From contig CAXXNF010000001.1 in assembly GCA_963666365.2 (NCBI GenBank), forward strand, positions 640,001 through 704,000: a stretch of DNA of 64,000 nucleotides, in the 5' to 3' direction. A program made the position numbers and the translations under genes. Below the pieces are notes generated by a model, which saw only the letters and a list, made by a program, of their open reading frames with translations, was not told the DNA's origin and ran no database searches. Positions 13,709 through 52,800 of the stretch are shown in pieces (the first letter of the stretch is position 1; each line of letters begins with the position of its first letter). The stretch is from Syntrophales bacterium. Its GTDB lineage: Bacteria > Desulfobacterota > Syntrophia > Syntrophales > UBA2210.

Positions 13709-13710
13709 TC

Positions 13711-14541
13711 ATGGATGCCATCCACAAAAAATACCTGCGCATGGATAAGCTTCCCCACATCTGGTGTCCCGGTTGCGGGAACGGCACGATTATGGGTGCC
13801 TTTATCCGTGCAATCGACACGCTCGGCTACGAACAGGATGATGTAGTGGCGGTGTCGGGCATCGGTTGTTCCGGCCGTATTACCGGTTATCTAAATTTTA
13901 ATACGCTCCATACAACCCATGGAAGGGCACTGGCCTTTGCAACGGGCGTTAAAATGGCAAATCCGCGGCTCAAGGTGTTTGTATTCATGGGCGACGGCGA
14001 TGCGACCGCTATCGGCGGCAATCATTTGATCCACTCATGTCGAAGGAACATCGACATTACGGCGATCATATTCAATAATCATATCTACGGAATGACGGGC
14101 GGTCAGTATTCCCCCACGACATTCAGAAATAAGTATGCCACCACCGCCCCCTACGGCACCACGGACCCTGATTTCGATATCTGCAATCTCTGCATCGGGG
14201 CCGGCGCTTCCTATGTGGCCAGAGGGACGAGTTATCACGCAAAGATGCTCACGGATCTGATCGTTGCAGGCGCACGCCATGAGGGATTTTCGGTCATAGA
14301 AATCATCACGCACTGTCCCGTAAATTTTGGAAGGCGCAATGACTTTGATACCCCGGTCGACATGCTCCGCTGGCAGAAGGATCATGCCGTCAGGGCCTCC
14401 AGGGCTGAAAAGATGCCTCTGGAAGACATGGAAGGTAAATTTGTCATCGGCGAGCTCATGAAAACCGACAAGCCCGAATACGTGGCAGAATATGACCGTT
14501 TGATAGATGAGGTCCGGAAAGGAGTAACAGGCCGTGGGTAA
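13711..14541 (+). CDS. korB: 2-oxoacid:ferredoxin oxidoreductase beta subunit (TPP-binding)
   Basis: WCPGCG, SGIGCS, HTTHGRA, GDGDATAIGGNH, NNHIYGMTGGQ. Confidence 0.92.
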   Translation: MDAIHKKYLRMDKLPHIWCPGCGNGTIMGAFIRAIDTLGYEQDDVVAVSGIGCSGRITGYLNFNTLHTTHGRALAFATGVKMANPRLKVFVFMGDGDATAIGGNHLIHSCRRNIDITAIIFNNHIYGMTGGQYSPTTFRNKYATTAPYGTTDPDFDICNLCIGAGASYVARGTSYHAKMLTDLIVAGARHEGFSVIEIITHCPVNFGRRNDFDTPVDMLRWQKDHAVRASRAEKMPLEDMEGKFVIGELMKTDKPEYVAEYDRLIDEVRKGVTGRG

Positions 14542-34048: not shown

Positions 34049-34075
34049 CAACCACACATAAAGGAGGATTTGAGT

Positions 34076-35143
34076 ATGAAAAGAAGAGACTTCTTGAAGG
34101 GAATCGCCGCAACGGGCGCGGGCATCGCCGTTTCAGGGGGTGTGGGAACACTAACGACGGCACACGCGCGAAAGAAGGAAGATTTTGGAGAAGTTAAAAG
34201 CGTTAAAGTGTACTGCGTCTCCGAGACAAGCTGGTTCGACAATGCCACGCTCGGCAAAGACATCAAGGCCGCCGGCGGCATAAATACAAACCAGTATGAT
34301 GTCGCCTACAACATTGAAAATCTCGGCGGTTACTCTGCCGTCGTAGAAGTGGAGGCCCTTGACGGTAAGAAAACCAAATATCTTCTTGATACCGGCTGGA
34401 ACAACGACTGGATGGATTATGTCTTTGAAAAATCAGGCGTTGACAAGATGCTTAAGGGCAAAGAAATCGATACGATGATCATTTCCCACGATCATATCGA
34501 CCACTATTTCGGTCTTGAAAGCACGCTGAAGCATCAGCCTGACATCAAAATTTATTTCCCCGGCACCTCGATGAAAAAGAGTTTTGAGCTGCTCAAGGGC
34601 GCCGACTTTTCGGCAACGCCGGGCTGTCCGAAAAATACGGTTCCTCATACCGGTGAATTGATTGTGACCGAGACCAACAAACTCTACAAACTGCAGGAGG
34701 GCGCCGCCGTTGTGTTCTTCGACTGCCCGGCGACGCTGCAGGTTCGCGGCGAGAACGTCATGTACTTCAAACTGAAAGACAAGGGCTACGTCACCGTTAC
34801 CGGTTGCTGCCATCCCGGCATTCTCACACTGATCAACCACGCCCGCAGAAACTTCAAGGACGGCAACAAAAATTACGGGTGCTACGGCGGTCTGCATATC
34901 TCGGTCTTTGAGAACTGGGATCCGAAATTCGATGACATCATCAAAGGCATGAAGACGTACAATATGACCAAGATCGGTTGCAACCACTGCACCGGGTGGA
35001 TCTGGGCGGAGAAAGCCGCTGCCGCGGGACTGCCCATCGTCCACGGCACCAATAAAAATCTTTCTTACAAGAAGGTGGGATCACTTGCCAAAGCCAAAAC
35101 ATCCAATGTGTATCTAGGAAATGGCGACGAAATGGTGTTCTGA
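34076..35143 (+). CDS. Tat-exported metallo-beta-lactamase-fold hydrolase (COG1237-like)
   Basis: Tat signal MKRRDFLK plus h-region; LLDTG, SHDHIDH, TGCCHPG, GGLH, NHCTG. Confidence 0.85.
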   Translation: MKRRDFLKGIAATGAGIAVSGGVGTLTTAHARKKEDFGEVKSVKVYCVSETSWFDNATLGKDIKAAGGINTNQYDVAYNIENLGGYSAVVEVEALDGKKTKYLLDTGWNNDWMDYVFEKSGVDKMLKGKEIDTMIISHDHIDHYFGLESTLKHQPDIKIYFPGTSMKKSFELLKGADFSATPGCPKNTVPHTGELIVTETNKLYKLQEGAAVVFFDCPATLQVRGENVMYFKLKDKGYVTVTGCCHPGILTLINHARRNFKDGNKNYGCYGGLHISVFENWDPKFDDIIKGMKTYNMTKIGCNHCTGWIWAEKAAAAGLPIVHGTNKNLSYKKVGSLAKAKTSNVYLGNGDEMVF

Positions 35144-35280
35144 GTGGAGATCGACCAGGCAACAGACGAAATGAATCGATAATTGTCCCGAAGGGGTCGA
35201 ACACTCCTGAAAAATTATTTTCCGGGTATCGACCCCTTTCTTTCATCAACACGACATCTACACACACAAGGGGGGTATCT

Positions 35281-36525
35281 ATGGACAACAATCAATCCAA
35301 TGAAAACTGGCTCGCTACTCGGCAGCTGGAACCTCGATGGTCTATTGGTCTTTCGGGCATCGTCAATTTGATCGTGCTTATCATCGGCGTGTGTGCCATA
35401 TGGTGGATCTTTTTCTCAGAGGCAGGATTGTGTAAACTTTATACACCTCTTCTGGGTTTTTCTCTGGTTATATGGACACTGCTCATACTGCTCTGGCAGA
35501 CGGAACTGTTTGATTATTGGCCGTTCTCACGCACCTACCTGAAGAATACAAATCCCCTGGCCAAGGGAGCGACGATGACCGCACTGATGATTGTCATTTA
35601 CCTCGTCCTTGTTATCGGATGTGTATTTCTGATATTGGGAAAACTGGGCATCACCTATTTCAACTGGAACAGTCTGATGGCCTATGGCGAGCTGGGACAG
35701 GACGCCCTGTCCACCAGGGAAACAGCCTCCTGGGCAATGCTTTCACTCTCGGTTCCGTTCTTTCTTTTCAGCGTCTGGTTCATGTTCGGCATCGGAAGGG
35801 ACCTTTTCCCCGAGCTGAAACAGCCGAAACTCGGAATTGCCATGTGGGCGATTATAGCCGTATTCGGCATCTACTTTTTCTTCATCTTCTTTCACCCCCA
35901 TCTCGGCTCCATGTTCTATCCGAAGCAGGTCTATACGGCGATCCCGCCCTGGTGGGAAAGCATCGCCCACACAAACAGCGCCGAATACAGTCTGGGCATT
36001 CTTTTCTGCACCGTCGTAGCAACCTTTCTCGCCTTCCATCTCTGGGACGGCTGGCCCTTCCTCTACGTAAAAAAACAACCCTGGCGATTTATCATTTTTG
36101 CCGTAATCAGTCTTGTGCTCGGCTATATCCTGTTCCGCATTCAGCTCTTCGTGTTCGACTACTTATGGGATGAAGCCTATGTGGGCGGCCAGAACGATGC
36201 CAATTTCGGGTGGCGCTACGGTCACACCGTGACAATGGCGAATTTTATCCTTGTAATTGCCCTGATTCAGAACATATACTTCGGGCAGGCCTACGAAAAA
36301 TTGAATGGAATCGTACGGTCCGTCATCAAGACCGTCGTTGCCATCGTGATAGGTCTTCTTTTCGCATGGGCCTATTACGCATGGGGACCGACGCTTCTTG
36401 GCGTATGCGAGGGCGTGTCCCATCCATCGGAAAATGCCGCCGCCTTTTTGATCATGGTCATTAACCTGATTATGATACATGATTACTTTATGGACGGATG
36501 GCCGGGCTATCGACTGAAAAAATAA
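35281..36525 (+). CDS. Polytopic membrane protein, putative transporter
   Basis: About 10 hydrophobic segments; recurring WP motifs (FDYWPF, WDGWPF, MDGWPG) suggest internal repeats; same operon. Confidence 0.8.
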   Translation: MDNNQSNENWLATRQLEPRWSIGLSGIVNLIVLIIGVCAIWWIFFSEAGLCKLYTPLLGFSLVIWTLLILLWQTELFDYWPFSRTYLKNTNPLAKGATMTALMIVIYLVLVIGCVFLILGKLGITYFNWNSLMAYGELGQDALSTRETASWAMLSLSVPFFLFSVWFMFGIGRDLFPELKQPKLGIAMWAIIAVFGIYFFFIFFHPHLGSMFYPKQVYTAIPPWWESIAHTNSAEYSLGILFCTVVATFLAFHLWDGWPFLYVKKQPWRFIIFAVISLVLGYILFRIQLFVFDYLWDEAYVGGQNDANFGWRYGHTVTMANFILVIALIQNIYFGQAYEKLNGIVRSVIKTVVAIVIGLLFAWAYYAWGPTLLGVCEGVSHPSENAAAFLIMVINLIMIHDYFMDGWPGYRLKK

Positions 36526-36542
36526 CCGAAGAGAAGAGAAGT

Positions 36543-37526
36543 ATGACCGTAACAGAGCACACCGATCCTGTCGCCGCCGCTGAATCGCTTATGCTTGAAC
36601 TGTTCCAGCATGTGTTTCAGAATGATGCAGCGCGGCGCCATTTCGGTTTTTCTCAGATATCTCAGGTGGTTGATGCGGATGGGCTGCCGCAGTGGTATCT
36701 CTGGTTTTCAGATAAGAGGGGCGCCTACTCCCTGACAATTGTCGAAGGGTGCACGTTGTCCGACAGTTTTGACGCGGCGGCCCACGGTTCAGGCGCCCCT
36801 TTGGTAGAAAGCAGAATCCTTCTCCGTTACTTTCCGGCCATCGAAGAGGACGACTTCGATGCACTGTCCTGTACCGAGCAGCTCTTCAGAATGAGCCCCA
36901 ACTGCGACGCAACCGGCACGCCCTCCTTCGAAGGAGGCGGCGCCATGCATCCAAGTTTCTTTGTCGCCGGACATATGGACATCATCGTCGATTCCTCGAA
37001 AAGGGATGTCGCGTTTTTTTGTGCCGCACCCGACAGATGGCGCGATTATCGTACCGACGGCCTGATTATGACTGATACAACAGGCACACCCCAGCAGGTG
37101 CTCTCGCCCGGAGACATTGACCGAGATTTTCCGGGATGGATGCTGACGTCCTTCTTTTTTGACAAAATAATCTCGGCATTCTGCTGTATGACCGCAGGAG
37201 CGCCCCGCATTGCGGGCGCTGCGATGAAGCGTTCCCGTCACTATGAGATCGACGGGGCGAACCACGTCACCGTCGTCGACGACGACACCATTATGGAACG
37301 GATTTTGGGCGCAGCGTTTTTCGACGCCGACGATGAAGAGACTGTACGAAAGAAGGCGGCATCTTTTACGGAAAGACTCAATTCGAGGGACTACGGACTG
37401 ATCGGCATATGGGAACGGCCCGACGATATACCTGCAGGATGGTGTAATCCGGCATGGTGGACAATCAGAGACAGACATTTTCATGCCGATTCGGACCGCC
37501 TGTGCTCCTGCTATCATGATCATTAG
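36543..37526 (+). CDS. Hypothetical protein ending in CSCYHDH
   Basis: 327-codon ORF closely spaced within the operon; no family recognised. Confidence 0.7.
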   Translation: MTVTEHTDPVAAAESLMLELFQHVFQNDAARRHFGFSQISQVVDADGLPQWYLWFSDKRGAYSLTIVEGCTLSDSFDAAAHGSGAPLVESRILLRYFPAIEEDDFDALSCTEQLFRMSPNCDATGTPSFEGGGAMHPSFFVAGHMDIIVDSSKRDVAFFCAAPDRWRDYRTDGLIMTDTTGTPQQVLSPGDIDRDFPGWMLTSFFFDKIISAFCCMTAGAPRIAGAAMKRSRHYEIDGANHVTVVDDDTIMERILGAAFFDADDEETVRKKAASFTERLNSRDYGLIGIWERPDDIPAGWCNPAWWTIRDRHFHADSDRLCSCYHDH

Positions 37527-37553
37527 AGGGAAGTGAAAGGACGGCGCGCATCC

Positions 37554-37826
37554 ATGGTCGACAAATCACGTCGAAGCTTTTTTAACGATTATTTTCTGAA
37601 AACCGCAGTCAAATGCATTTCCGAAGGCCGTGAAGCCTATGAAAAGACGAAAAACGATCTGGACTACTTTGATTCTTTCGAATCGGCCTATCCTCTCATA
37701 TCGGAAAGCTATTCTTTTCTTGAGGACGAAGCACAGCGACTTGGAATCGACGTTACGGGCATGACAAAACTAGAGATTGTCAAAGAAATTTACCGAAAAG
37801 ACAATAAACGTTCCTCGCGAACCTAA
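37554..37826 (+). CDS. Small hypothetical protein with an N-terminal SRRSFF motif
   Basis: 90-codon ORF in the same orientation, AAAGGA upstream. Confidence 0.6.
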   Translation: MVDKSRRSFFNDYFLKTAVKCISEGREAYEKTKNDLDYFDSFESAYPLISESYSFLEDEAQRLGIDVTGMTKLEIVKEIYRKDNKRSSRT

Positions 37827-38019: not shown

Positions 38020-39453
38020 TCATGACGATGACAATCGCCGGGTCAGCAATTCCCGGATCACTTTCGGATTGGCTTTTCCGCCGGAGGTCTGCATGATCTG
38101 ACCGATCAAAAAACCCAGGGCTTTTCCCTGGCCGCTTTTGTAATCGGCCACCGCCGCCGCCTGCGCCGCAAACACCTGATCAATCAGCGATTCGAGCGCG
38201 CCCGCGTCGGACACCTGACCCAGGCCTTTGACTTTCACAATGTCCCGGGGAGCATCACCGGAATCAAACATGCACGACAGCACATCGCGGGCCGCGTTGG
38301 CGTTGATCTCGTCTTTTGCCAGCATTTCCAGAAGTGCGGCCAGTCTTTCCGGCGTCACGGGCGTATGGGAAAGATCCTGGCGACGTTCACGCAGGGCGGG
38401 CAAAAGCTGGGTGGTCAGCCAGTGCATGGCTGCTCTGATCTGGGCGCCCGCGCGAATCAATTCTTCAAAATAGACGGCCGTTTCCGGATCAGTGCTCAGA
38501 TAGGTCGCCTCGTCGGTTGAAAGGCCATACTGGTTGACAAACCGTTCAGCGCGCACTGCGGGCATTTCCGGCAGACGGGCGCGCAGTACCGCAATTTCTT
38601 CGGGTGAAAGCTCAATGACCGGCACAGAGGGATCGGGAACACAGGGGCCCTCAAACTTCTGCCGCATGGGCAGCGTGACTTTCTTATCCGGATCCCACAA
38701 CCGGGTGTGCAGCACCACGGATTCGCCGGCCCGCACGGCCGCGCTCTGACGGCTGATTTCGTAAGAAATTGCATCCCCCACGTGTCGGACGGAATTCATA
38801 TTCTTCACTTCCACCTTGGTGTTCATACGGCCGTCGCCTTTGGGACGGATGGAGATGTTCGCATCGGCGCGCATCGTGCCGTTTTCCATACTGCATTCCG
38901 ATGATCCCACATAGCGCACCTGCGTACGCAGGGCCTTGAGAAACTCCATTGCATGGTGGGGCGTCCGGAAATCCGGCTCGGTGACGATTTCCACGAGCGG
39001 TGCACCGGCACGATTGAAATCCACCAGACTGATCGGCGTTCGTCCTTCCATTTCATGCACCAGTTTGGCGACGTCCTCCTCCATATGAATATGATGGATG
39101 CGCATCCTTTTGGGCGAGCCGTCTTCATCGGCAATGTCAACCCAGCCACCGCGGGCCAGCGGCAGATGCACCTGTGAAAGCTGATATCCCTTGGGCAGGT
39201 CCGGATAGTAGTAAACCTTTTGATCAAAGGCGCTTTTCGGCTGAAGTTCGGCATTGAGGCCCAGGCATAAAAGCGCCGCCTTTTCGAGCGCGGCCCCGCT
39301 CAAACGAGGCGCGGCGCCGGGATGCCACAGACAGACCGGACAGGTGTTAATGTTCGGGTCATCGCCGGGATTATTGGGACAATCGCAAAAGAGCTTTGTG
39401 GCACAGTTGAGTTCGACATGAATTTCCAATCCAATAACCGCTTCAAATTCCAT
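38020..39453 (-). CDS. gatB: Asp-tRNA(Asn)/Glu-tRNA(Gln) amidotransferase subunit B, divergent
   Basis: VIGLEIHVEL, YYYPDLPKGYQ, HMEED, DFNRAGAPLVEIVTEPD, EVKNMNS, C-terminal YqeY-like GFLIGQIM..SGGKANP. Confidence 0.95.
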   Translation of the reverse strand: MEFEAVIGLEIHVELNCATKLFCDCPNNPGDDPNINTCPVCLWHPGAAPRLSGAALEKAALLCLGLNAELQPKSAFDQKVYYYPDLPKGYQLSQVHLPLARGGWVDIADEDGSPKRMRIHHIHMEEDVAKLVHEMEGRTPISLVDFNRAGAPLVEIVTEPDFRTPHHAMEFLKALRTQVRYVGSSECSMENGTMRADANISIRPKGDGRMNTKVEVKNMNSVRHVGDAISYEISRQSAAVRAGESVVLHTRLWDPDKKVTLPMRQKFEGPCVPDPSVPVIELSPEEIAVLRARLPEMPAVRAERFVNQYGLSTDEATYLSTDPETAVYFEELIRAGAQIRAAMHWLTTQLLPALRERRQDLSHTPVTPERLAALLEMLAKDEINANAARDVLSCMFDSGDAPRDIVKVKGLGQVSDAGALESLIDQVFAAQAAAVADYKSGQGKALGFLIGQIMQTSGGKANPKVIRELLTRRLSSS

Positions 39454-39455
39454 CA

Positions 39456-40655
39456 CTATTTACCTCCCCTGCGCTGCTGATAAAGATAGTCTCCCAGGGC
39501 AATCAGCCGCGCGTCCGCCTGCAACGCACCCACAATCTGCAGACCCGGCCGGTCGGGAGCTGAGGCCGGCGCCGTCAAAGCCGGCCAGCCTGCGACGTTG
39601 GCATGCACCGTGTGGATACACTGTTCGTAAAGGTGGCCCAATGCTTCCGATGTATCAATCAAGGCTGTGTTTTGCACCGGAAAAATCAGTGCGTCGGCCT
39701 GCCTTTCCAGACGTCGGGTATCCTTCACCAGGCGTGCACGGATGCGGCAGGCCTTTTCGTAGGCATCGTAACGCTCAAACTGAAAATAGGCACCCTGCAT
39801 CAGGTAACTTTTTAAAAGGGTTCCAAAAGACGCGCCGCGGCATTGCAGATACATATCGTTCCAGTTTTTGGCGCCCGGTACGCGCTTTCCGAAGCGCACG
39901 GAATCATACCGTCCGGCCGCGGATGAGGCCTCAACTGAACCGACAATCTTATGCACAACCAGACACAGGGCATAGTCCGGCCAGGAAAAAGATTTGACGA
40001 TGAACCCCAACTGACCGAGTCCATCCAATTCCCCGTCGAAGGCGCTCCGTTCGGACGCGGAGAGTGCAGACAGGGATTCTTCGATGACGCCCAGTGTCAT
40101 TTTTTTCGAGTCAAGGTCCTTCAATGGAATATCGGAGAAATCCAGATCGGGCTGAGAAAAATCCCGTTCGTCAACCCCGGCGACGCCTTTGACCACTGCA
40201 CGGATATCACCGGGCGTCTTTGCCAGAATCCCACAGACTTCCATCGATGGAATCAAGCCGGCAATCCCCAGACGGGGAATCAGGCCCCAGGACGGTTTGA
40301 ACCCCCAAAGCCCGGCACGCTCTGCGGCCAGGCGCGCCTCTCCTGCCAGATCCAGCATGATCTCCGCGTCCGCCTCTTTTTGTTCAACGGCCCTGCCGGC
40401 GCCGCTGCTTCCATTGATGCCGAAGCCGAATTCACTTGTGTGCGTCAAGCCCGATATCACCGCGCCGTTCCTTCTGAGTCGCTCTACGACAGCGGCGTCT
40501 TCCAGGGCCTTAAAACCGTTCAGCGCCTCTGAACCCGCCTCCATGGGCCAGCCTGCAACGGCGATGTTCGATTGAAGGGCAACTGCCATGCCGGCAAGCG
40601 GACCGCCGGCGCCTTCAGATACGTTCGGATTGCGATAGAAAAAACTTTTTTTCAT
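39456..40655 (-). CDS. gatA: GatA-like amidase-signature protein with degenerate catalytic residues
   Basis: GPLAG, SEFGFG, GFKPSWG, EASSAAGRYDSVRFG, ANVAGWPA; lies between aspS-gatC and gatB. The Lys and Ser catalytic positions are substituted. Confidence 0.85.
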   Translation of the reverse strand: MKKSFFYRNPNVSEGAGGPLAGMAVALQSNIAVAGWPMEAGSEALNGFKALEDAAVVERLRRNGAVISGLTHTSEFGFGINGSSGAGRAVEQKEADAEIMLDLAGEARLAAERAGLWGFKPSWGLIPRLGIAGLIPSMEVCGILAKTPGDIRAVVKGVAGVDERDFSQPDLDFSDIPLKDLDSKKMTLGVIEESLSALSASERSAFDGELDGLGQLGFIVKSFSWPDYALCLVVHKIVGSVEASSAAGRYDSVRFGKRVPGAKNWNDMYLQCRGASFGTLLKSYLMQGAYFQFERYDAYEKACRIRARLVKDTRRLERQADALIFPVQNTALIDTSEALGHLYEQCIHTVHANVAGWPALTAPASAPDRPGLQIVGALQADARLIALGDYLYQQRRGGK

Positions 40656-40665
40656 AGATAATCCC

Positions 40666-42786
40666 TTATTCCAGAATACTGGCAACTTTAAAAAAATTGC
40701 CTTTGACCGCCGGGGCGTTCTGGAGCAGAACGCCTGTTTCAGCCATAACCGAGCGTTTTGCGGTCAGCCCGGGCCGCGTGCGGTGCGTCGCGGGCAACAC
40801 CGAACGGATCGGTTCATCGTTTCCCGCCCTGTCGCAGGCAACCTCCGCCAGCGACTGAGCCTGCGAGAGCACCGCTTCCAAAATCGCCCGCTCCTCGGTC
40901 GCGATACCGATGCGCGACACCCAGGACAGACGGTCCAGCATATTTTCTTTTTCCGTGGTTCCGGGCAGCACATCCTTGCCGCCCAAATTCAGAAGGCCCA
41001 GTTCGGCCAACTGTTCCCGTTCAACGACGGACGGCGCCCCGGTGAGCGGGCAACCGGCGGAACGGTTTTTCGGGAAGGCGATGACCTCGCGAATGGACTG
41101 CGTTTTGAGAATCATCGACACCACACGGTCCATGCCCAGCGCGAGGCCCCCGTGGGGCGGCGCACCATAATCAAAAGCCCTCAGGAAGAAACCGAATTTT
41201 TCCCGCATGTCCTTTTCGGTAAGCCCCAGTGCCGTGAATATTTTACGCTGGAGGTCGCGGTTGCTGATACGAATGCTTCCGCCGCCCAGTTCCTCTCCGT
41301 TCATCACCAGGTCGTAGGCGCGGGAACGCAGGCTGAGCAGTTCTTCCACATTTTTCGGATCGAAATCCGTCCGGTCCGGCGCCGTGAAGGGATGGTGGCT
41401 CGATGTAACGGCGCCCTCCTCGGCGGCTTCAAAAAGGGGAAATTCCGTGATCCAGACCGGACAAAAGCTGTCTTCGGGAATGAGGTTCAAACGATGCGCC
41501 AGGTGCAGGCGCAGCTGCCCCAACGCGGAGGTGACGGTTGTGTAGGAGGGATCGGCCACCATAATCAGCACATCGCCGTCTTCCACGTCAAAACGCTTCT
41601 TGAGCAGGACCAGTTCCGCTTCGCTGAAAAACCGGACAATATTGGATTCCAATTTTCCGCCTTCGGCCCGCATCCAGGTCATACCTTTGGCGCCGAAAGA
41701 CGGCGCAATCTCCTTGGCATACTCATTTTGCAGCACATTTTTGCTTAACTGTTCGGATCGGCCCCTGATGTTGATGCCCTTGATGCAACCGCCGCGCTTC
41801 AGTATCTGTTGGAAAATTGAATACTTAGTGTCGGTAAATACATCCGTGACGTCCACGAAACGGAGGCCGAATCGCAAATCGGGCCGGTCAGAACCGGTGG
41901 CGTCCATCGCATCGGCGTAGGTCATGCGCGGAAAAGGCCTGGGAAGATCGATGTCACCCAGCGTAAACATCTGAACCGTCAGCTCCTCGATCAGCTCATA
42001 GAGAAATTCCTCGTCGATAAAAGACGCTTCCAGATCGAGCTGTGTGAATTCCGGCTGACGGTTGGGACGCAAATCCTCGTCGCGGAAACAGCGGGCCAGT
42101 TGAAAATAACGCTCCAGGCCGCCGATCATCAGCAGTTGCTTGAACAGCTGCGGCGACTGGGGCAGGGCGTAGAAGCTTCCCGGATGCACACGGCTGGGTA
42201 CCAGATAGTCGCGGGCGCCTTCGGGGGTGCTCATCGTAAGCACGGGCGTTTCCACTTCCACAAAGCCCCGCTCATCGAGAAACCGGCGTACACACTGGAA
42301 AATCTTGTGCCGCAACCGCAGATTGTTTTGCATGACGGGGCGGCGGATATCGAGGTAGCGGTACTGCAAGCGCAGCTCTTCCGAAACCTGCTCCGTGCCT
42401 GACGTTTCGGCGCCCGCTACCATGGCCTTGTCGGATATGACAAAGGGCAGAGGATCGGAGTCGGCCAGCACGGTTACATTCTGTGCAATGACTTCAACAT
42501 CTCCGGTTTCGATATGGGGGTTTTCCGTCCCGGAACGCCGCCTTGTGACTTCGCCTTCCACGGTGACGCAATACTCCGCCCGCAGTGCCGAGGCCGCCTC
42601 GCATACATCCCCGGGGGCAATCTCCGGATTAAAGACAATCTGCACGATGCCGCTGCGATCACGCAGATGAATGAAGATAAGACCGCCGTGATCGCGGTAG
42701 GCATCCACCCATCCGCACAGTTGTACCTGTTGACCAATTTTTTCAGCCGAAATGGCGCCGCAAAAAATCCTCCCGGAAAAGCTCAT
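40666..42786 (-). CDS. aspS: Non-discriminating aspartyl-tRNA synthetase with a C-terminal GatC-like domain
   Basis: RDHGG, LRLQYRYLDIRR, TPEGARDYLVPSR, CFRDEDLR..RQPEFTQLD, APPHGGLALGMDR. The last ~95 aa end LLQNAPAVKGNFFKVASILE, a GatC-type C-terminus. Confidence 0.95.
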   Translation of the reverse strand: MSFSGRIFCGAISAEKIGQQVQLCGWVDAYRDHGGLIFIHLRDRSGIVQIVFNPEIAPGDVCEAASALRAEYCVTVEGEVTRRRSGTENPHIETGDVEVIAQNVTVLADSDPLPFVISDKAMVAGAETSGTEQVSEELRLQYRYLDIRRPVMQNNLRLRHKIFQCVRRFLDERGFVEVETPVLTMSTPEGARDYLVPSRVHPGSFYALPQSPQLFKQLLMIGGLERYFQLARCFRDEDLRPNRQPEFTQLDLEASFIDEEFLYELIEELTVQMFTLGDIDLPRPFPRMTYADAMDATGSDRPDLRFGLRFVDVTDVFTDTKYSIFQQILKRGGCIKGINIRGRSEQLSKNVLQNEYAKEIAPSFGAKGMTWMRAEGGKLESNIVRFFSEAELVLLKKRFDVEDGDVLIMVADPSYTTVTSALGQLRLHLAHRLNLIPEDSFCPVWITEFPLFEAAEEGAVTSSHHPFTAPDRTDFDPKNVEELLSLRSRAYDLVMNGEELGGGSIRISNRDLQRKIFTALGLTEKDMREKFGFFLRAFDYGAPPHGGLALGMDRVVSMILKTQSIREVIAFPKNRSAGCPLTGAPSVVEREQLAELGLLNLGGKDVLPGTTEKENMLDRLSWVSRIGIATEERAILEAVLSQAQSLAEVACDRAGNDEPIRSVLPATHRTRPGLTAKRSVMAETGVLLQNAPAVKGNFFKVASILE

Positions 42787-42953
42787 ACAATATATATCCT
42801 TTCTGCTGGAATCGCGTGACGCATACCCGCCTCCCTGGCATGGCTAAAATCCTACCGCTACAGACGGGGATCTCTGCGCGCCGGCGTTGCATTCAACGGC
42901 GCGAGTACTTTTTTTCTTTTACCCCCCCCATCTCCGGGATCGCCGTCCGGGAC

Positions 42954-42982
42954 AGCATAATGCGCATGCCATCCATTGTCAA
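42954..42982 (-). promoter_or_regulatory. Sigma-70-type promoter of the aspS-gatA-gatB operon
   Basis: TTGACA-17 nt-TATGCT on the minus strand, leaving a leader of about 160 nt. Confidence 0.65.
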
Positions 42983-43060
42983 GGCCGCAGAACCTTTAGA
43001 AAAGAAAACATGGTTGTAGTGTGTCGGATGGCCCGTTCCTCCGGTGTCTCGAGTGGGTCA

Positions 43061-43681
43061 TCAGGAGCAGTGCGCCGTCCACTGATCCATTTCGCGGAAA
43101 AAAGAGTCTGCATCCCTGTAGTGCACGGCCTTCCAACCTTTCTGCCGCGCCCGTTCGACATGCCCGGGGTGATCATCGACAAACACTATCCTTTCAGCAG
43201 GTCGCTTAATCCGGGCAGCGATATCGTCAAATAATGAGGCGTCGCGCTTGCCCTTCCCGATATGGTAGCTGTTGAACACATAGTCGAAGAACTTGAAGAA
43301 ATCATAGGCGGCGTTGAGTTCATCGAGCATATCGATCTGATCGCTCAAGATTCCCACAATCAGATTGCATCCCCTGAGTCGCTTCACGTAATCGATCATC
43401 CAGTCTCGTACCACAAAACGTGAAAAAATCTCCTGACGCAGGGCAGCTTCGTCACCGGAAATGCCCGTTTTCCCCTTGAGAACCCTCCAGAATTTTTTTT
43501 CAGCACCGACGCCGGTGAGATAACCCGTCTCGTAGGCTGTATCGGCTGCCGCTTCCGCAAGCCAATCGCCGTCCAGTCCCTGTGCGCGGGCGATCGCCGT
43601 AAAGCCGTTCTTCCACCCCTCTTCCGCCAGCACCCCTCCGAAATCGAACATCACCACATCAATTGTTTCAGTCTTCCCCAT
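43061..43681 (-). CDS. HAD-family phosphatase
   Basis: MFDFGGVL (motif I), GILSDQ, SYHIGKGK, FVDD. Confidence 0.88.
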   Translation of the reverse strand: MGKTETIDVVMFDFGGVLAEEGWKNGFTAIARAQGLDGDWLAEAAADTAYETGYLTGVGAEKKFWRVLKGKTGISGDEAALRQEIFSRFVVRDWMIDYVKRLRGCNLIVGILSDQIDMLDELNAAYDFFKFFDYVFNSYHIGKGKRDASLFDDIAARIKRPAERIVFVDDHPGHVERARQKGWKAVHYRDADSFFREMDQWTAHCS

Positions 43682-43760
43682 CGGTTTTTTCTGTCCTTTC
43701 TTCCCTGTCATACCGGTCACTGATTGCCTGAACTTCCCCCCTTTTACTCCCATAATGACC

Positions 43761-43789
43761 TTGACACAAAAAATTTCTCTTCATATAAT
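43761..43789 (+). promoter_or_regulatory. Consensus sigma-70 promoter of the giant surface-protein gene
   Basis: Exact TTGACA-17 nt-TATAAT, 86 nt upstream of the ATG. Confidence 0.8.
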
Positions 43790-43875
43790 GCAAAAAAAGT
43801 AAGTAAATCCTTATTATCACTTCAGACAGAACCTTCTGCCCGCTGACGTTACAAAGCAATGAAGGGACCTTTGTC

Positions 43876-46800
43876 ATGACGCGTACCATAATCAATGCAT
43901 TTTTCATTTCTGCAGTTTGCCTTTTTTGTCCGCTTTTTCTGACACAGAGTACCGCCCTTTCCTGCGCTGTCACTGCACAGTCTGTTCCTTACGGCGTCAA
44001 TTCAGCCGGCGAAACCACGACTGCCGATGCCTGTCTCGACAACTATCCCGGCCTGACCTTTTCTCAGGCGGATTTGTATATTCTGCGGCACCAGCTCGAC
44101 TCCCTCCGCTATAACTATGAAGCCTATCGATCAACCATGTTTCAGCATTTCGAAATGTTTCAAGGCGCCTCGCCTTACAGCAACAAAGTAAATCTGGAAA
44201 CCCTGGGACCGCTCTATTCCGAAGACTACAAAAAGATCCTTCAGTTCGCCTCCGGCAGCGGCAGTGATCCCTCCGCCGCCTCACTGATGGAAGAGGCCAA
44301 GGAAAAGATCAACATGGAGGAGATCGTCGCAACAGCGGGAAGCGAACTGTCGGAGAAACTGCTCGAAATGGCGGGGGTCTCCATCATCCTCATGCCGCTG
44401 GATAAATTCAAACAGTGCGCCCAGTTTCTGGCGACGGCGACACTCGACGGACTGAACGGCATGATGGACAACTTCTATACCGGTGCGGCCGAGCTGTACC
44501 TGTTTCAAGCCTGGGAAGATTCCCAGGGTGATGAAATATACAACCCCAACTACACGCTGGAAGAGAATGCCGATCAGACCGCCCGCGTGATCAACGGCAT
44601 GACGAACGCCATTAACCTGATCGAAACGGCCAACGGCCAGTCTTCTTTCAGTTACAGCGCGTCGGTAAGCGAAAACCAAGCGGCCTGGACGGCGCTGGAA
44701 ACGGCGCTGAACAACCAAAAAGGGCTTATTGCCACACTGGACAGCAAGGCACAGACCACGCGGGGAGAATACGGCCTCGGAAGATCAGTGGTGTGGCAGT
44801 GGACAAGCGAAGCCCTGCAAGCGGTCGATATGGATCCTTTGTCGGATGCGGGAGACGTCAACGGCGACGGCGTGACTGAAATGCTGGCCGATGCCATTCT
44901 GCTGGCCTGGAAGATGGAACTCGATTCGCTGCGCGGGACGATCGACCTGCAGCGCGAACTGATCGATGAGTACACCGTTCCGGAACTGGAACTTCTGTCA
45001 TTCATCGATCCGAATCCCGATTCGGAGATAGACCGATACCCCGTAAGCGATCACGGAAACCTTCCGGCATATACCCATGCACTACCGAACGCGCCGGACT
45101 GGACCGTCGGTCCCTCCGGTTGCGATTTCACCACCATACAGGCGGCCGTTGCCGCCGCTTCTCCCGGCGACGCGATCATGGTGTCGCCCAAAGAGAACAA
45201 TGCCTATTATCAGGAATCCGTCATCATTGATAAGGAAGGGGTGATCCTTTATGGAGATCCCGCGGCTCGCCCCTTTATCGGGACATCCGACGGAACGCCC
45301 CCTCTTCCGTTCGGAATCGAAATCGCCGCCGACAACGTGACGGTCTCCAATCTGATCATTCAACGGACCGTCCGGGGAATAATTGTGAAGGGCAACGGCG
45401 CCGCTGTCGTCAATAATCTCATTCAATGGACTATCTACGGCATTCTCGTCGAAGAGTGTCATGACGGCCTTTTTGCAGGGAATATCGTCGACGAGGCAGT
45501 GGGCCGGGCGATACGGCTAGAGCGCGGCGCCGGCAACACACTTTATTACAATTCATTCAATCTCAAATCGGACGTTGCTGGTACGGCCTGCGCCTACAGC
45601 AGCGGCGTCAATACCTGGGACGACGGCGTCGATACAGGCAACTTCTGGAGCGATTACGACGGATCGGGGATCTATCCCATTGCAGACGGACGAGAGAAAG
45701 ACGACCGTGTATATGGCGCTGCGGCCGTGACACCCGGCGCCACATTGACGGCAAAAACGCTTGTCAGGGGAGCAATGGGCGACGATACGATTGAAGTGGA
45801 TTTTTATTTCGGCAACCCGGACAACGGGGGAATTCTGCTTAATGCCTCGCCGGTCCTGGCCGAGATTCGGGGCAATTACGCCGTTGCCGTGTACGAGTGG
45901 GACACTGCAGGGTTTCTCGGCACACAGGATATTCACGTCCGCATACACGGTGCAGGCGACGGCGTTACGGAAAAAGTCAGAGTCTTTCCCTCCGGTCTAT
46001 GGCCGAGCTCGGCGGCCACTCTTTTCGTAACCGGGTTGCATCTGGAACCCGGGGACGACCTGACCCTTTTCAACGCTATACACTGGATCGATTCACCTTA
46101 CGAAAGTCCGGGAATTACGGTTCCGGACGGTGCATCCCTTTCCCTATCGGGTGTAATCTTTTCCGTACTGGAAAATCTCGCCGTTTCAGTTGCCGCCGAA
46201 GGAGCCTTCTTCTCCCACAATGACGTGAACTGGAATACGGATGTCGATCTCTTTCACAGAGGCGAACGCCTTCTGGAGGAAGGCTTTGCGCCGGTTGTCT
46301 CGAATACTTCCTTGAATCTGGAGCACAACGTTATCAATCTCAGGGGCTGCGGGAACATAGATTGGCAGGGCAGGGACTTTACCGGATATGAAATAACGCT
46401 TTCGAACCTCACCGACCTTAGAATGGAAAACGTGACGGCCGATGCCGTGACGATTACAGACTGCACTTTCGGCGCCTCCGCTCCCGGAACGATCACGAAC
46501 GCTCATATTCCGCTCATTACCCTGCGTAACAGCGATTCGTTCCATATCACCGACAGTGTCTTCGGCGGCAATGGGCGCATTGTCCTGGAACAGGGTATCG
46601 ATAATCTTCAAATCAGCGGAAATACCTTTACTGATATCGAGGGATACGCCATCAGTGGAACAGCCGTGACCGCCGGAAACCTTCTCGTGGAATCGAATAC
46701 CTTCGATAATTGTTTCGGCTGCTTCTCTCTGTCTCTGGCAAGCGACACGACCGGAATCAATTTCCAGGAAAACGACATCACCGGCCTTGCCACGGCGGGC

Positions 46801-49800
46801 TATGCCGGGGTCTATCTAAACGCCTCCACTCTTTTGAACAATAGGGACCTTACTATCACAGGCAACACCTTTGTCAACAGTAGTGCGCACACTGTCAAGG
46901 CAGTCCATCTCGTCAACCTGGACGGAGGGACAATCAAAAATAACACCTTCACCTATGTCGATTACGGGCTCTATCTTCAGGGGTGCCGCAACATCACCGC
47001 CACGGTGAACCGTTTTCTGGAAGGCAGCAACGGATACGACAGCTCAGGTTCAACGAACAACCGGTGGTATGAAAACCGTCTGGGCAACTACTGGAGCGGG
47101 TTTCGTTGCGAAACACCCAATGAGGCAAACCTTCAGGTATTCTCCTGCCCCTATGTCAATGGATTCGGGGTCAACGATCCCTATCCGCTCATCCGCGACA
47201 GGTTGATCGAATCGGTGGTTGCCGTGCCGACAACGGGAAGGACGGAAGAGACATCATCGGGGATATCATGGCCCAACCCGCGTTTTGAGATTCAGCACGA
47301 CGGAAACGTAGTGCTGGATCGCCTTACCGGCCTGATGTGGTGCGCTGAAGGAAACGCCATAGGCGATTTCTGTCCCGGGTTTGATACAGACGATGTTGAA
47401 GGGGACGGCAAAATCACATGGGCCAGGGCGCTCAATTTCATCAACTACGTGAACAGCGGCAACTGTGGCGAAATCTCGGCAGGGTATACCGACTGGCGCC
47501 TTCCTAACATGAACGAACTTGAGAGCCTATGGAATACATCATCTCTGACCATAAAGGATTTTCTGGATAACGCCGGTTTTTCCAATATGCAGTCAGGCAG
47601 ATACTGGTCTTCAACCACCCATTATCCGGATGGATTTGCCTATACTGTTGATTTTACGACAGGAGAAATTGTCATTGAATACTGGAATAACTGCACCTAT
47701 TCTCTAATGGTGCGAGGCGGCGCTGATGGCGGCACGGATCCCGCATATCCCGCAAATATCGCGCAAACCGGACAGATCACCAGTCACATGAACGGAGACG
47801 ACGGTGATCTGCAACGAGGGATTGCCTGGCCTTCCGACCGGTTTGTCGACAACGGCGATGGAACAGTAACGGATGTGCTTACCGGTCTGATGTGGTTTGC
47901 AGAAACCGGCAGGTCATACACCTGGCAGGAAATTCCGGCTGTCATGGAAGCGCTCAACAACGGCACATATCTATTTGACACCAACAGAGGGTACTCGGAC
48001 TGGCGGCTGCCCAGTGTCCAGGAGTTGCTCAGTCTCGATTGTTATTTCAATGTATATCCCGAAGGCTATCTGTATCCCAACGGCGGTATTCCCGATTCTG
48101 TCCTTTTGGATTATGTGTGGAGTGCCACGACCCGACCGGATGACACATCCAAAGCCTATGTCATGAATTTGGGGGACGGGCAGCTCATTTCCGAGAACAA
48201 ACTGGACCCGCACCTCGCATTCATACGATTCATACCCGTCCGCGGCGGCCTGTATCGTCCCGCCGCCGCCACGCGGCTACACATGACCCCCGAGGCACTT
48301 GACTTTGGGGCAGTGGCAATGCTGGGCAGCCAAACGGAACTGTTGGAAGTGCGCAATGACGGAATCAATTCTGCCGCGATTTTCTTAGTTTCACTGATCG
48401 GGGAGCATGCCGACAGCTTTTCCCTGCTCAGCGAGCCGATGCCTCACAGCCTGATTCCGGGAGGAGGAAGCGATACGATAGAAGTAGTGTTCAATCCGAC
48501 GAGCCCCGGTGAAAAACAGGCCCGTCTGATCATCTATTCAGACGATCCGATTACCCTCTGGGACGAGATCCCCCTGAGGGGAACATCGACAGAGCATACC
48601 GTCTCCATCGGGTTCCAGGGTAACGGCAGTGGAGTCATCGAGGCCCATTCCCACTATGACAATCAGACATACAGCTTCTCTGAAAGCGGCACGCTGCAAG
48701 TCGTACCCGGCACCGATGTAACCTTCACGGCAACCCCCGCCGCCGGGTCGCACTTTGACTGCTGGACGGGTCTTCCCGAGGACGTGTCACGCAGTAACCC
48801 CATAACCGTGCGTATCAATGCGGATACGACCGTAACCGCTACGTTTGCCCTGGATACGTTCACGGTGCGCGGGAGCGTCGCCACAGCCGGCGGCGCCATC
48901 AGTCCCTCGGGATCGGTGACGGTAGATTACGGACAGGACCAGGCCTTTACCTTTGCCGCCGATCCTCACTATTTCCTGTCAGACGTCCGTGTCGATGGGG
49001 CATCCGTTGGGACGCCGGACGCGTACACCTTCGAAAACATCAGCGGGGATCACAGCATTACCGCAGATTTTACGTTGATCCCCTACAGCGTCGCTGCAAG
49101 CGCCGGCAATGGCGGCGCCATATCTCCCTCGGGCACTCTGGAGATGAATGTTACCCAAGAGCAGATCTTTGCGATAACACCCGAACCAGGTTATGCCATC
49201 TCCGATCTGCTGGTCGATGGCGTGTCCCAGGGCGCCGTTTCCTCTTACACACTTTCAAACCCGGAAGAAAATCACACCATCGAGGCGGTCTTCGAGACAA
49301 TCGAGTATGCCGTTTCAATTACCCACAGCGGTTTAGGTACGATAGACCCGGCAGGACCTCTGACCATGACGGTGGAGGATACACAGACGCTTCTATTCAC
49401 CCCTGACGCATATTACTGGTATGTCCAGGATGTCCTTGTCAATGGTCAATCCCAGGGGGCAAGTGATGTCTACGAGATCGCAGGCGTAACTGAAAATCTG
49501 GATATTCAGGTGATATTCGAAACGGACTGGCACAGGTTTGAAGCAACGGCAGGAGAAGGGGGAACGGTCTTGCCTATCGGTGAATATTACGTCGCGCCCG
49601 GTGAAACTCGACGCGTTATTATTACCCCCGATGACGGCTATCTGATCGCCGATGTCGTGGTGGACGGCGTCTCTCTTGGGGTGATAGACCGCTATACTTT
49701 TACGAATGTGGACGCGGTCCACTCAATCGAGGCCTCCTTTGTCGCCCATGACCCGTTGCCCCTCTCCCTTCCCAGGACCGGCGCCGATATTTCCTGGTAT

Positions 49801-52800
49801 GAAGGTGACGACGGCGATCTACAGGAAGGCATCGAATGGCCTGATCCCCGATTTACCGATAACGGAGATGGAACCATTACCGATAATCTGACGGGTCTTA
49901 TCTGGCTTAAAGACAGCGCCGCACTGGGCGCGCACAGCTGGGAAAATGCCTTGGTTGCCATCGAAACGCTCAACACCTCCCCCCAGAGCATCGCTCCAAC
50001 CGGCTATGACGGAGATTATCCAGACTGGCGCATGCCCAATCAATTCGAGCTGCTCAGCCTCTTTGTCAACGCAGGGGAGGGGGACTTGACCGCATGGCTC
50101 GCACGCGCCGGATTTACCTGCGGTTCATCGATATGGTCGTCCACAACGGCACAAAGTTACTTTCTCCCTGCTTTTTATGTCGAATCGGGTACGTCCGGAT
50201 TCACGTACCTCACGGCAAACAAAACCGACGTCAAGGGAATACTTGCGGTACGGGGCACATCAACGGGCCCGTTTACGGTTCCCAAAACCGGTCAAACAAT
50301 ATCCTATGCGCCGGGAGACGATGGCGATCTGCAAAAAGGGGCAACCTGGCCTTCCCCCCGCTTTGTCGACAACGGAGACGGCACGGTCACGGATCAGCTT
50401 ACCAATCTGATGTGGCTGAAGACGGCCAACCCCTTAAAGTCATACAACACTCCTTCTTTGGGCGATTCCGACGGATGTGCCAACTGGCACAACTCGTTGC
50501 TTTTTATCAATAAACTTAACGATGGCGATTATTCCGAAAAAACGGACCTTTTCGACGACTGGCATCTTCCCAATGCCTGGGAGTTTTTAAGTCTCTACAA
50601 TCCCTCACAGAGCGTGCCGGTCTTTGCGGAGCGCCCCTTTACCGAAACCAGCGGTTCGACCGGAACCGTTCCACGAGACGACCTGTACTGGACGGGAACG
50701 ATCAGTCCGGTTGACGGCGATTTCGGTGGACGCGTGCTGACAAAAATCGACGGGAGCAATTACCAGCGAAGCTACTACGAATGGAATGAACTTTCAACCG
50801 CGGCCGCCGTGGCCTGGGTCGTGCGCGATGCATCGAAAGTGACCGTGCATACCTGCGTTTCAGGAAACGGCAGCGTTTCACCGTCGGGCGACATCAGGGT
50901 GGATATCGACGGGAACCAGACCTTTACCATTGCCGCCGACAGGGGCTACGAAATCGCCGATGTCATCGTTGACGGTGTGTCCGTCGGCGCGGTGAATTCC
51001 TACACCTTCGAAAACCTTACGGAACCGCACACATTGGAAGTGCAGTTCGCACCATTGACCTACACGATTACCACGGGCGTCACGGGAAACGGATCGATCC
51101 TGCCTGAGGGGAATCAGGCAGTGGAATACGGTCAGTCCCTGCGCCTCACCTTCACCCCGGATTACGGGTCGGTGGTTGCCGACGTGCTGGTGGACGGCCT
51201 TTCAGTTGGAAATTCTTCATATTATATATTCGACAGCGTAACCGAACACCACGACGTTGCCGTGGTGTTTGAAGAGATGTCCGGCCAGCGTGCCGAGGCG
51301 CCTGCCACGGGTCAAACAATTTCCTACGCCGCCGGGGACGATGGCGCGCATCAAAGCGGTGTTGTCTGGCCTGAACCACGGTTTGTCGATAACGGCGACG
51401 GCACGATTACGGATATGCTCACGGGCCTCATGTGGCTGAAGCACGCCAATCTGGGAACACTGGAAAGAGGTTGGTCCCATACGTGGAACGGCGCACTGGC
51501 TGAAGTGGCGGCCTTCAACAGTGATCCAGCATCTTTCGCCCGTGAAGAATACACGGCTGACTATACAGACTGGCGGCTTCCTAGCATTGTTGAACTCAGC
51601 AGCATTCTGCGCAACGCAGGCGTTTCGGATATTAAAACCTGGCTCGAGGATGCGGGATTTCTTTACGTGCCGTCCGGCAATTCCTGGACGTCTACCACGC
51701 TGACGCTCGGTCCGACCACCTATGCCTACTATGCCGCGATTTATTCCAATTCCGGACTTGATGAGGTCGGTTATCATGATGTGTCTCAGAGCTTCTACAC
51801 ATGGCCTGTCCGGGGGACCGCCAGCGGTGCGATCTACCTGCCGTCGACCGGGCAGACTGTAAGTTATGCCGACGGCGACGACGGGAACCTCAAAAAAGGG
51901 CTTGCCTGGCCCGAACCGCGCTTTATTGACAACGGCAACGGAACCATTACCGATGAGCTGACCGGCCTGATGTGGCTGAAAAACGCAGATCTCGCTTCAG
52001 GGGAAGTTGAATGGTCTTCGGCCCTGAACACCGTCGCCGGAATCAACAACGGCAGTATCAGCGGTGCCTGCGGCTACAGGGACTGGCGGCTTCCCACGCT
52101 CGCCGAACAGATGAGCCTGATAGACTGGTCTGCCGCATACCCGCCCTTGCCTGCAGGGCACCCCTTTGTGAATTTGCAACTGGCTGAGTATTGGACCTCC
52201 ACCACCGACGCAAGCTCCGACATTTCAGCATATATCGTTGATTCCCGTTTTGCCGAAATTCATAATTATCCCAAAACCGGTTCTTACTATTCAGACAATT
52301 ATGTCATGGCTGTTCGAAATACCTATTACACGATCACTTACAGTCCGCCGACGTTGACAAATCGGGATGTGACGGCCGCAATCACCTTCAGCGACGAAAC
52401 GTTGACCGTCACCAGCGAGGGCGGCGCCGCGCACGTATTCACCGAAAACGGTACATGGGACTTTACCTTCGAAGACGGGGAAAGCGCTACCGGTACGGTG
52501 ACGGCCACCGTCGACTGGATCGACAAAGCGCCGCCCACGGCGACCATTGCCTATTCAACCACCGATACGACAAACCAGGATGTCGTGGCAACGATCACAT
52601 TAAGCGACGGCTCGGTGACCAGCGAGGGCGGCGCCACACACACCTTCACAGAAAATGGTGACTGGACCTTTACGTTTGAAGACGATCTCGGTAACAGCGG
52701 CACAGCGTCAGCAACAGTGAACTGGATTGACAAGGCGCCGCCCACGGCGACCATCGCCTACTCAACCGTGTATTCCACCAATCAGGATGTGACAGCCACA

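Follow-up and report, generated by a model that had tools for sequence, protein, structure and literature searches.

The three genes considered here lie closely packed on the minus strand of a 64,000-nucleotide stretch of the genome of a Syntrophales bacterium (assembly GCA_963666365.2, contig CAXXNF010000001.1, positions 640,001 to 704,000; hereafter the window, whose numbering is used throughout unless a locus label is given). They encode a bacterial-type aspartyl-tRNA synthetase (AspRS) fused at its C-terminus to a GatC-like tail of ~110 residues (40666..42786, 706 residues in all, with the tail at 40666..41010), a shortened homologue of the amidotransferase subunit GatA, here called GatA' (39456..40655, 399 residues), and a full-length GatB paralogue with cradle, helical and YqeY tail domains, here GatB2 (38020..39456). 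The ATG of GatA' (40655) lies 10 nt past the TAA of the fusion gene and has AGGGA 7-11 nt ahead of it, and its TAG overlaps the GTG of gatB, or ends one base before a gatB ATG, with GGAGG upstream. A candidate sigma-70-like promoter, TTGACA-17-TATGCT, lies on the same strand at 42954..42982, ~170 nt upstream of the fusion ATG; it comes from a consensus scan only and agrees at 10 of 12 positions. A key finding from our analysis is that GatA' has the predicted fold of a GatA without its glutaminase triad, and is very probably a selected, non-glutaminase subunit.

The residues in question were read from a HMMER alignment to the GatA proteins of Aquifex and Thermus, and from a MAFFT alignment to the canonical GatA of the same genome. 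Both alignments, together with a check of the codons, place Gln28 (CAA, 40572..40574) at the catalytic Lys, where AIKD has become ALQS, and Glu106 (GAG, 40338..40340) at the nucleophile Ser, where GSDTGGSIR has become MLDLAGEAR; Glu106 stands inside an invariant D..GE.R motif. There is no counterpart of canonical residues 1 to ~55, which form the N-terminal helices, a gap of 19 columns takes the place of what canonical GatA has from EF.MG up to GGSSGG, and GGSSGG itself is absent. The position of the cis-Ser is less clear-cut, as HMMER aligns Ser83 of a 'GSSG' remnant there and MAFFT leaves a gap; across the wider GatA' family it is S, T, A, R or D and is not conserved. The Asp of MYLSD that binds glutamine is Cys346 (39618..39620, codon checked), and EASSAAGRYDSVRFG, the EASS..RYD..R.G stretch, is retained. 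These observations bear out what the original prediction had drawn from the sequence of this gene, namely the two catalytic replacements, a deleted loop of about 20 residues before GGSSGG, a missing N-terminal helical region, Cys for Asp in Y..D..T...N.AG, a kept EASS...RYD..RFG stretch, and an uninterrupted reading frame (open over 39456-40655) with a ribosome-binding site and an overlap with gatB.

Profile searches place GatA' in the amidase signature superfamily. The Pfam Amidase family PF01425 matches residues 83-384 of GatA' with 164.4 bits (gathering threshold 27), and the gatA family TIGR00132 matches in two stretches with 212.7 bits, below its curated cut-off of 481.1. The residues that bind glutamine are also an incomplete set, with Arg273 (39837..39839) kept at a column mapped by motif and not by structure, Asp replaced by Cys, and Tyr replaced by His235 (39951..39953, from alignment columns), the last column being what we take to be the substrate-pocket Tyr of canonical GatA. 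In yeast GatA the glutamine carboxylate is bound by R334, and an Asp holds the amino group (PMC4027206). Taken together, the aligned residues indicate that the Ser-cisSer-Lys glutaminase machinery is lost from GatA', with Lys replaced by Gln28 and the nucleophile Ser by Glu106.

By fold, GatA' is predicted to be a GatA still. An AlphaFold2 (AF2) model (predicted template modelling score 0.79; mean predicted local distance difference test score, pLDDT, 71.8) was compared with the PDB using Foldseek, and the nine best matches are all GatA chains (template modelling score, TMq, 0.69-0.76; 23-27% identity), headed by 3kfu_E, 3h0l_A, 4wj3_A and 2df4_A (TMq 0.72-0.76). The place of the gene between gatC and gatB agrees with this assignment and is fixed. 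Of 401 genomes sampled from the phylum, 10 contain GatA', this genome included, and a cassette-type GatB profile (E<=1e-200) picks out exactly the same 10; the order fusion-GatA'-GatB2 is identical in all nine other carriers. A wider scan of one genome per species gave 233 stretches that encode a relative, and in all of the best 80 loci, which were analysed, the cassette is intact and the GatA' frame open as far as the contigs reach. The apparent truncation of GatA' in one genome (G240) is an N-run in the assembly and no deletion.

Conservation was followed in a close and in a wider set of homologues. A word-indexed search yielded 449 proteins at E<=1e-10 among 8000 candidates scored, and the query with its best 120 homologues, all of 375-405 residues, makes up the close set (n=121). 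The representative set was drawn from the 150 best matches among 1.84 billion representatives, with the 132 of 340-699 residues aligned; within it we distinguish 15 family rows (the query and 14 full-length clusters, leaving out fragments and clusters P0136 and P0144, which likewise carry E at the nucleophile column) and, for comparison, 84 canonical representatives with the K-S-S-S-D pattern. At the nucleophile column all 121 close homologues have E, as do 14 of the family rows, the remaining one having Q. The catalytic Lys column is Q in 118 and S in 3 of the close set, and Q in 10, P in 3, E in 1 and S in 1 of the family rows. Without exception, the 84 canonical representatives carry K at the Lys column and S at the nucleophile column.

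Selection on the three genes was estimated by the Nei-Gojobori method from 14 non-overlapping pairs, taken from 59 loci in which all three genes are nearly full-length, at 70-97% GatA' identity. The ratio of non-synonymous to synonymous substitution rates (dN/dS) is 0.11-0.32 for GatA', 0.05-0.17 for the AspRS-GatC fusion and 0.06-0.16 for GatB2. One could argue that GatA' is a decaying pseudogene in a redundant operon, since it scores far under the gatA cut-off and shows the lowest conservation among the three genes over the cassette loci (48-66% identity vs 71-86% for the partners). Yet the frames remain open, the dN/dS values are well under neutrality, the substituted residues are invariant and the gene strictly co-occurs with GatB2, so that we regard decay as having next to no chance of being correct and have rejected it. 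The changes in GatA' are conserved under purifying selection, as the original prediction had proposed to establish; its own refuting case, in which orthologues would keep the triad and this copy would decay neutrally, is contradicted by the same data.

The partner proteins, by contrast with GatA', look catalytically intact, judging from family scores above the cut-offs and from invariant motifs. The fusion contains the Pfam domains tRNA-synt_2, GAD and tRNA_anti-codon, that is, the class II core, GAD domain and OB fold of an AspRS, scores 765 bits against the aspS equivalog NF001750 (cut-off 443), and is 47% identical to the other AspRS of the genome. GatB2 matches GatB_N with 323 bits and GatB_Yqey with 148 bits, reaches 566 bits against the equivalog NF004012 (cut-off 338), and is 42% identical to the canonical GatB of the genome. 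Over 20 cassette GatBs, Glu11, His13, Glu126, Glu127, Glu156, Asn200 and Ser202 do not vary. They fall in the motifs that contain the ligands of Mg and ATP, as named for yeast GatB (PMC4027206), and were placed by motif. GatB2 also keeps 75 of the 103 columns that are invariant among the canonical GatBs which the carrier genomes encode, and its 3_10-turn region shows no change of length from canonical GatB. This turn reads U1-A72 of the tRNA (PMC2811023), and the genome has one tRNA-Asn (GUU, U1-A72) and one tRNA-Asp (G1-C72), with no extra isoacceptor. By sequence, then, the parts of a transamidosome would be present: a competent AspRS and GatB, a tRNA-Asn with U1-A72, and a bacterial 3_10 turn. 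The expectation that the partner genes in the operon are intact holds up on all of these counts.

Because the triad is lost, the loss is conserved under selection and the partner genes are intact, a non-glutaminase GatA in a working complex is the natural reading. We postulate that the AspRS part of the fusion would load Asp onto the single tRNA-Asn, and that the GatC-like tail would tether the synthetase to the GatA'-GatB2 pair. GatB2 would then phosphorylate the Asp side chain, using ATP, and amidate the activated Asp with ammonia that does not come from glutamine by way of GatA', but most likely from free NH3/NH4+. On this view GatA' still folds as a GatA and occupies the usual position of that subunit, and its former glutaminase pocket would serve as an open, acidic entry for ammonium to the old tunnel. 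The loss of the N-terminal helices and of the loop, with carboxylates of Glu and Asp where the nucleophile used to be, would agree with such a cation-attracting entrance. The formation of the complex, the Asn-tRNA(Asn) product, the ammonia donor and the site of entry at the pocket are all inferred from sequence.

Free ammonia is the simplest source because GatA' cannot make ammonia in the known way and no donor subunit is linked to the cassette. No single neighbouring gene family recurs in over 6 of the 80 loci, and for that reason no separate gene for an ammonia donor, nor for a transporter or regulator, can be said to be linked. The use of ammonia by such enzymes is not unprecedented. The tRNA amidotransferases are active with 20 mM NH4Cl in place of Gln, and trimming of the peptide that caps the glutaminase site in yeast lowers Gln-dependent transamidation and raises NH4Cl-dependent transamidation (PMC4027206). 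Weighing sequence and analogy together, we give an even chance to the view that the cassette works as an Asn-transamidosome that needs no glutamine and is supplied with free ammonia.

Several observations count against this view, and they concern the pocket, the partners and the hosts in turn. In the pocket, the new invariant Glu, His and Gln might point to another ligand or another chemistry and not to an open door, and the Arg that binds the substrate carboxylate is retained, as R in 121 of 121 close homologues, 15 of 15 family rows and 84 of 84 canonical representatives. His235 corresponds to H in 120 of 121 and 14 of 15, where canonical GatA has Y in 83 of 84; Gln292 (39780..39782) is Q in 121 of 121 and 15 of 15, where canonical GatA has L in 82 of 84. 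The Asp214 column is E in all of the close set, and the Asp177, Arg183 and Arg350 columns are kept in all of it. Over the 15 rows, Glu106, Glu139, His235, Gln287, Gln292, Trp36, Trp265 and Asn266 are specific to the family and invariant or nearly so. From Glu106, His235 and Gln292 the former active site is rebuilt and not eroded.

A rebuilt pocket (Asp102, Glu106, Arg108, His235, Arg273 and Gln292) might bind or hydrolyse another nitrogen donor, or sense a metabolite that gates GatB2, giving a donor-switched or an allosteric complex. Beside the near-invariance of the replacing residues and their restriction to this family over 15 divergent clusters, this explanation can draw on the retention of Glu242, the partner of the carboxylate Arg, and on residues 249-293, the most conserved stretch of GatA' yet the one of lowest AF2 confidence (pLDDT 41-49), which would fit an induced-fit or interface element. 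It is weakened by the variability of the Lys column in the wider family, by the replacement of the Asp that holds the Gln amino group (among the 121, Phe in 109, Cys in 6 and something else in the remaining 6), and by the lack of any amidase-signature enzyme with a Glu nucleophile among what turned up, no search having been aimed at one. A new Cys-His-Glu triad was considered as well and rejected, as Cys141 is conserved in close homologues but not across the 15 clusters. We think a new donor or ligand unlikely on balance, if well worth keeping in view. As to the earlier proposal of a pseudo-enzyme scaffold, the part that stands is that the glutaminase triad is gone and the partners are intact; 'mere scaffold' may understate GatA', because the pocket has been rebuilt with new invariant polar residues.

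The partners raise doubts of their own about an ammonia-fed Asn-transamidosome. The tail of the fusion is conserved among 20 fusions, but its identity as a GatC is weakly indicated by sequence: it gives 16.8 bits (E 0.0078) against Pfam GatC, under the cut-off of 23, and a BLAST comparison with the genome's own GatC aligns only the last 19 residues (NAP..G.FKV..ILE). GatB2 carries invariant replacements at 28 of the 103 canonical-invariant columns, including R78Q, N80V and the DYRYFP loop. The canonical, invariant E..DYRYFPDPDL loop is FEGP-CVPDP in GatB2 (residues ~264-276, window 38640-38670) and is three residues shorter; this sequence, R78Q and N80V are invariant in 15 cassette GatBs, and R78Q and N80V flank a conserved Lys. 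In a quick maximum-likelihood tree the GatB2 clade sits on a long stem (1.56 + 0.43 changes per column). The changes in GatB2 would thus seem to exceed the need of a simple switch of nitrogen source, and with the invariant His and Gln and the retained Arg of GatA', this remodelling is why a new ligand or a different product keeps some probability.

Perhaps the output of the cassette is not Asn-tRNA(Asn) destined for translation: GatB2 would activate the tRNA-bound Asp for attack by a nucleophile other than ammonia, or the product would go to a non-ribosomal use. The long branch of GatB2 followed by strong conservation, with invariant changes that touch the DYRYFP loop and the immediate neighbours of the conserved R-K-N lysine, is what would be seen after a change of function; the hosts already own a full housekeeping route, and the cassette is patchy and mobile, resembling accessory metabolism. 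The surroundings give this idea no help, however. There is no dedicated tRNA within the window, and 60 related loci show ordinary scattered tRNAs only; only one tRNA-Asn and one tRNA-Asp are encoded in the genome, and the 80 loci show no linked gene for biosynthesis or for a transferase. We consider a different product or use improbable, and its most specific form, a non-canonical aminoacyl-tRNA for which the rebuilt GatA' pocket and an altered GatB2 tunnel would bring a non-ammonia nucleophile to the phosphorylated, tRNA-bound Asp, more improbable again. If that form were true, anaerobes of many phyla would be using such a product conditionally, beside normal Asn-tRNA synthesis.

The third set of doubts about an ammonia-fed Asn-transamidosome comes from what else the hosts encode. 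The original prediction had suggested a search for a second canonical gatCAB or for asnS, and the first of these is present in this genome as a complete gatC-gatA-gatB set, the gatA of which scores 639.3 bits (TIGR00132) with IKD, GGSSGG and GSDTGGSIR intact; no asparaginyl-tRNA synthetase (AsnRS) above the cut-off occurs in it. The genome also has a second, stand-alone AspRS, one glutaminyl-tRNA synthetase and two genes of AsnB type that pass the cut-off; AsnA is absent. A canonical GatA above the cut-off occurs in all 24 carriers examined (this genome, nine of nine others in the phylum and 14 of 14 in other lineages), a non-fused AspRS in nine of nine carriers of the phylum (one of them cut by a contig end), and a second, canonical GatB in 14 of 14 carriers of other lineages. 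AsnRS above the cut-off is found in 6 of the 24 (0 of 1, 2 of 9 and 4 of 14, in the same order). No carrier among the 24 gives evidence that the cassette suffices by itself for Asn-tRNA synthesis. Because of the canonical gatCAB and second AspRS here, and of the canonical GatA in every carrier, the cassette is an accessory second system and not the sole Asn-tRNA route of the cell. Nor is a dedicated ammonia enzyme obviously needed, since canonical GatCAB uses NH4Cl in vitro, and no gene for ammonium transport or nitrogen regulation is linked to the cassette in the 80 loci.

An accessory copy invites the explanation that the cassette is a back-up, or an insensitive version, for times when AspRS or GatCAB is inhibited (by glutamine analogues, aspartyl-adenylate mimics or GatA-mimicking toxins) or glutamine is scarce, with GatA' only folding or capping GatB2. 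This would suit a self-contained unit that spreads horizontally and is always extra to a complete canonical set, and a subunit that evolves ~2x faster than its partners, as expected where its role is mainly structural; the GatA look-alike toxin Tse8 does target the transamidosome, as summarised in a preprint (bioRxiv 10.1101/733030). Against it, no toxin, immunity or antibiotic-synthesis gene is linked in the 80 loci, and the new invariant polar residues are left unexplained. A back-up would still require a nitrogen source, so that the idea overlaps with an ammonia-fed transamidosome instead of replacing it. As a separate explanation we find it rather doubtful.

Among the best 80 loci, carriers include Smithella, Syntrophus, Dehalococcoidia and other Chloroflexota, Desulfobacteraceae, Desulfatiglans, Acidobacteriota, Verrucomicrobia, Lentisphaerae, Planctomycetes, Thermoleophilia, Gaiellales and one Competibacteraceae bin, so that the cassette is found in at least 8 phyla of anaerobes. 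The cassette GatB is 71-85% identical between this genome and the 14 carriers of other lineages; the canonical GatBs of the same 14 genomes are 46-75% identical, dropping with taxonomic distance. The quick tree separates 15 cassette GatBs from 16 canonical ones with an approximate likelihood-ratio support (SH-aLRT) of 100 and has short branches inside the cassette clade, where one Dehalococcoidales cassette stands beside the Syntrophia-type ones and apart from those of other Chloroflexota. From these comparisons the cassette looks horizontally spread.

Several side observations on the cassette and its surroundings may be recorded here. An additional AspRS gene without the fusion, sharing 43-48% identity with the fused one, stands within a few kb of the cassette in five loci of Smithella type (L044 1002-2774; L045 1812-3584; L054 9613-11391; L057 11729-13171; L070 7885-8874), and in one genus more amidase-family genes follow directly 3' of it (G316:C3:93046-93885; G233:C135:10826-11668 and 12664-14049). 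Rfam gave no match in the window at the gathering score and none at E<=1 in 42600-43900, hence no T-box or riboswitch, and on 12 cassette loci from different phyla it gave nothing except two ordinary tRNA genes, again with no T-box. About 24 of 62 upstream regions (L043-L100, Smithella/Syntrophus-type) have, 60-130 nt ahead of the fusion gene, a promoter-like TTGAAA-N17-TACGCT with a TG extension, followed by two tandem palindromic ACAAATTTGT-like boxes ~17 nt apart; the arrangement is absent from the window. The boxes suggest an operator through which a regulator would control the cassette. Two other readings of these upstream motifs were set aside by eye: an RNA hairpin, as the copies in L043 and L047 fit direct repeats better than a stem, and a sigma-54 promoter, as the spacing is GG-N9-GT and not GG-N10-GC.

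Farther out, the plus strand downstream of the operon (34070-37826) encodes a metallo-beta-lactamase-fold protein with a twin-arginine translocation signal, a 414-residue membrane protein and two open reading frames without a Pfam match, none of which recurs beside the cassette in other loci. On the other side, a giant plus-strand frame of 3855 residues (43876-55443) adjoins the operon. Its domains (six Lcl C-terminal ones, Ig-like ones and others resembling InlB B-repeats), its NosD/beta-helix repeats and a weak dockerin-like terminus give it the look of an adhesin-like protein that is secreted or exposed on the surface. An AsnB-like frame (1115-2329, plus strand; G000:C1:641115-642329; 505 aa) reaches 187 bits and so stays under the cut-off of its family. 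Elsewhere in the genome, outside the window, ARAGORN predicts a 'tRNA-His' of 98 nt whose anticodon is ATG (G000:C2:790224-790321), in addition to the normal tRNA-His(GTG) and a tRNA-Sec; it may be a false call, or else a tRNA with an unusual long arm.

How the cassette relates to systems already described depends on which of its parts is compared. AtzE, another GatA-like protein, is an active hydrolase that works without GatB or tRNA. Like the cassette, AtzE with its partner AtzG (6C62, a 'vestigial' complex derived from GatA and GatC; Foldseek rank 26, TMq 0.67) combines a GatA-like amidase with a GatC-like peptide outside GatCAB, there in s-triazine catabolism; the cassette differs in having lost the hydrolase site and kept GatB and AspRS. 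Among the nearest systems is the canonical GatCAB, or asparagine transamidosome (3KFU, 4WJ3, 2DF4, 3H0L), with which it shares an encoded AspRS, GatA fold and GatB, the gatA-gatB order and translational coupling, GatA chains as best matches in sequence and fold, GatB motifs and tail, and a tRNA-Asn with U1-A72. It departs from this model in the fusion of a GatC-like tail to the AspRS C-terminus, in a GatA' without Lys, nucleophile Ser, GGSSGG, N-terminal helices or 19-residue loop and with the Gln-binding Asp and Tyr replaced, in a GatB2 without the DYRYFP loop, and in being an extra copy. The fusion architecture is already catalogued, since residues 1-706 align end to end with positions 18-723 of the 723-long 'bifunctional AspRS/GatC' entry NF009460/PRK12820, at 1288.5 bits, 90 short of the cut-off of 1379; the entry is silent on a triad-less GatA partner.

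Extra sets are known as well. Clostridium acetobutylicum has a second, T-box-controlled aspS-gatCAB operon beside its housekeeping set for tRNA-dependent Asn synthesis (Saad et al. 2012, J Biol Chem 287:20382, as cited in PMC4206432), which resembles the cassette in its extra AspRS and GatCAB but differs in the T-box, of which none was found in the window or the 12 related loci. A laboratory analogue is the yeast mitochondrial GatFAB with a truncated GatF N-terminal domain, in which NH4Cl-dependent activity persists or rises (PMC4027206, for that mutant); it is engineered and its triad is intact, whereas GatA' has lost the triad in nature. In Pseudomonas aeruginosa the type VI toxin Tse8 is reportedly a GatA look-alike that acts via the transamidosome and not by amidase chemistry, but it is secreted, has an immunity gene and is in no operon with AspRS and GatB. 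Full-text searching, supplements excluded, turned up no description of a triad-less GatA, of the fusion or of the cassette. What is new here is above all that each of the 24 carriers examined has a canonical GatA beside the cassette; the fusion architecture and extra AspRS/GatCAB sets are known.

By definition, a tRNA-dependent amidotransferase joins a glutaminase to a kinase that depends on tRNA. A review names AsnA with AsnRS as the only other glutamine-independent way to Asn-tRNA (PMC2330236). The question is directly testable because a cultured carrier exists, Syntrophus buswellii DM-2 (L091). The cassette would be a test case for how ammonia enters and travels in the GatCAB tunnel, for the non-catalytic role of GatA, and for the reason why a cell should maintain two routes. 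If the proposal of an ammonia-fed transamidosome is true, a conserved complex without a glutaminase, fused to its synthetase and mobile among anaerobes, would provide a new link between nitrogen status and translation.

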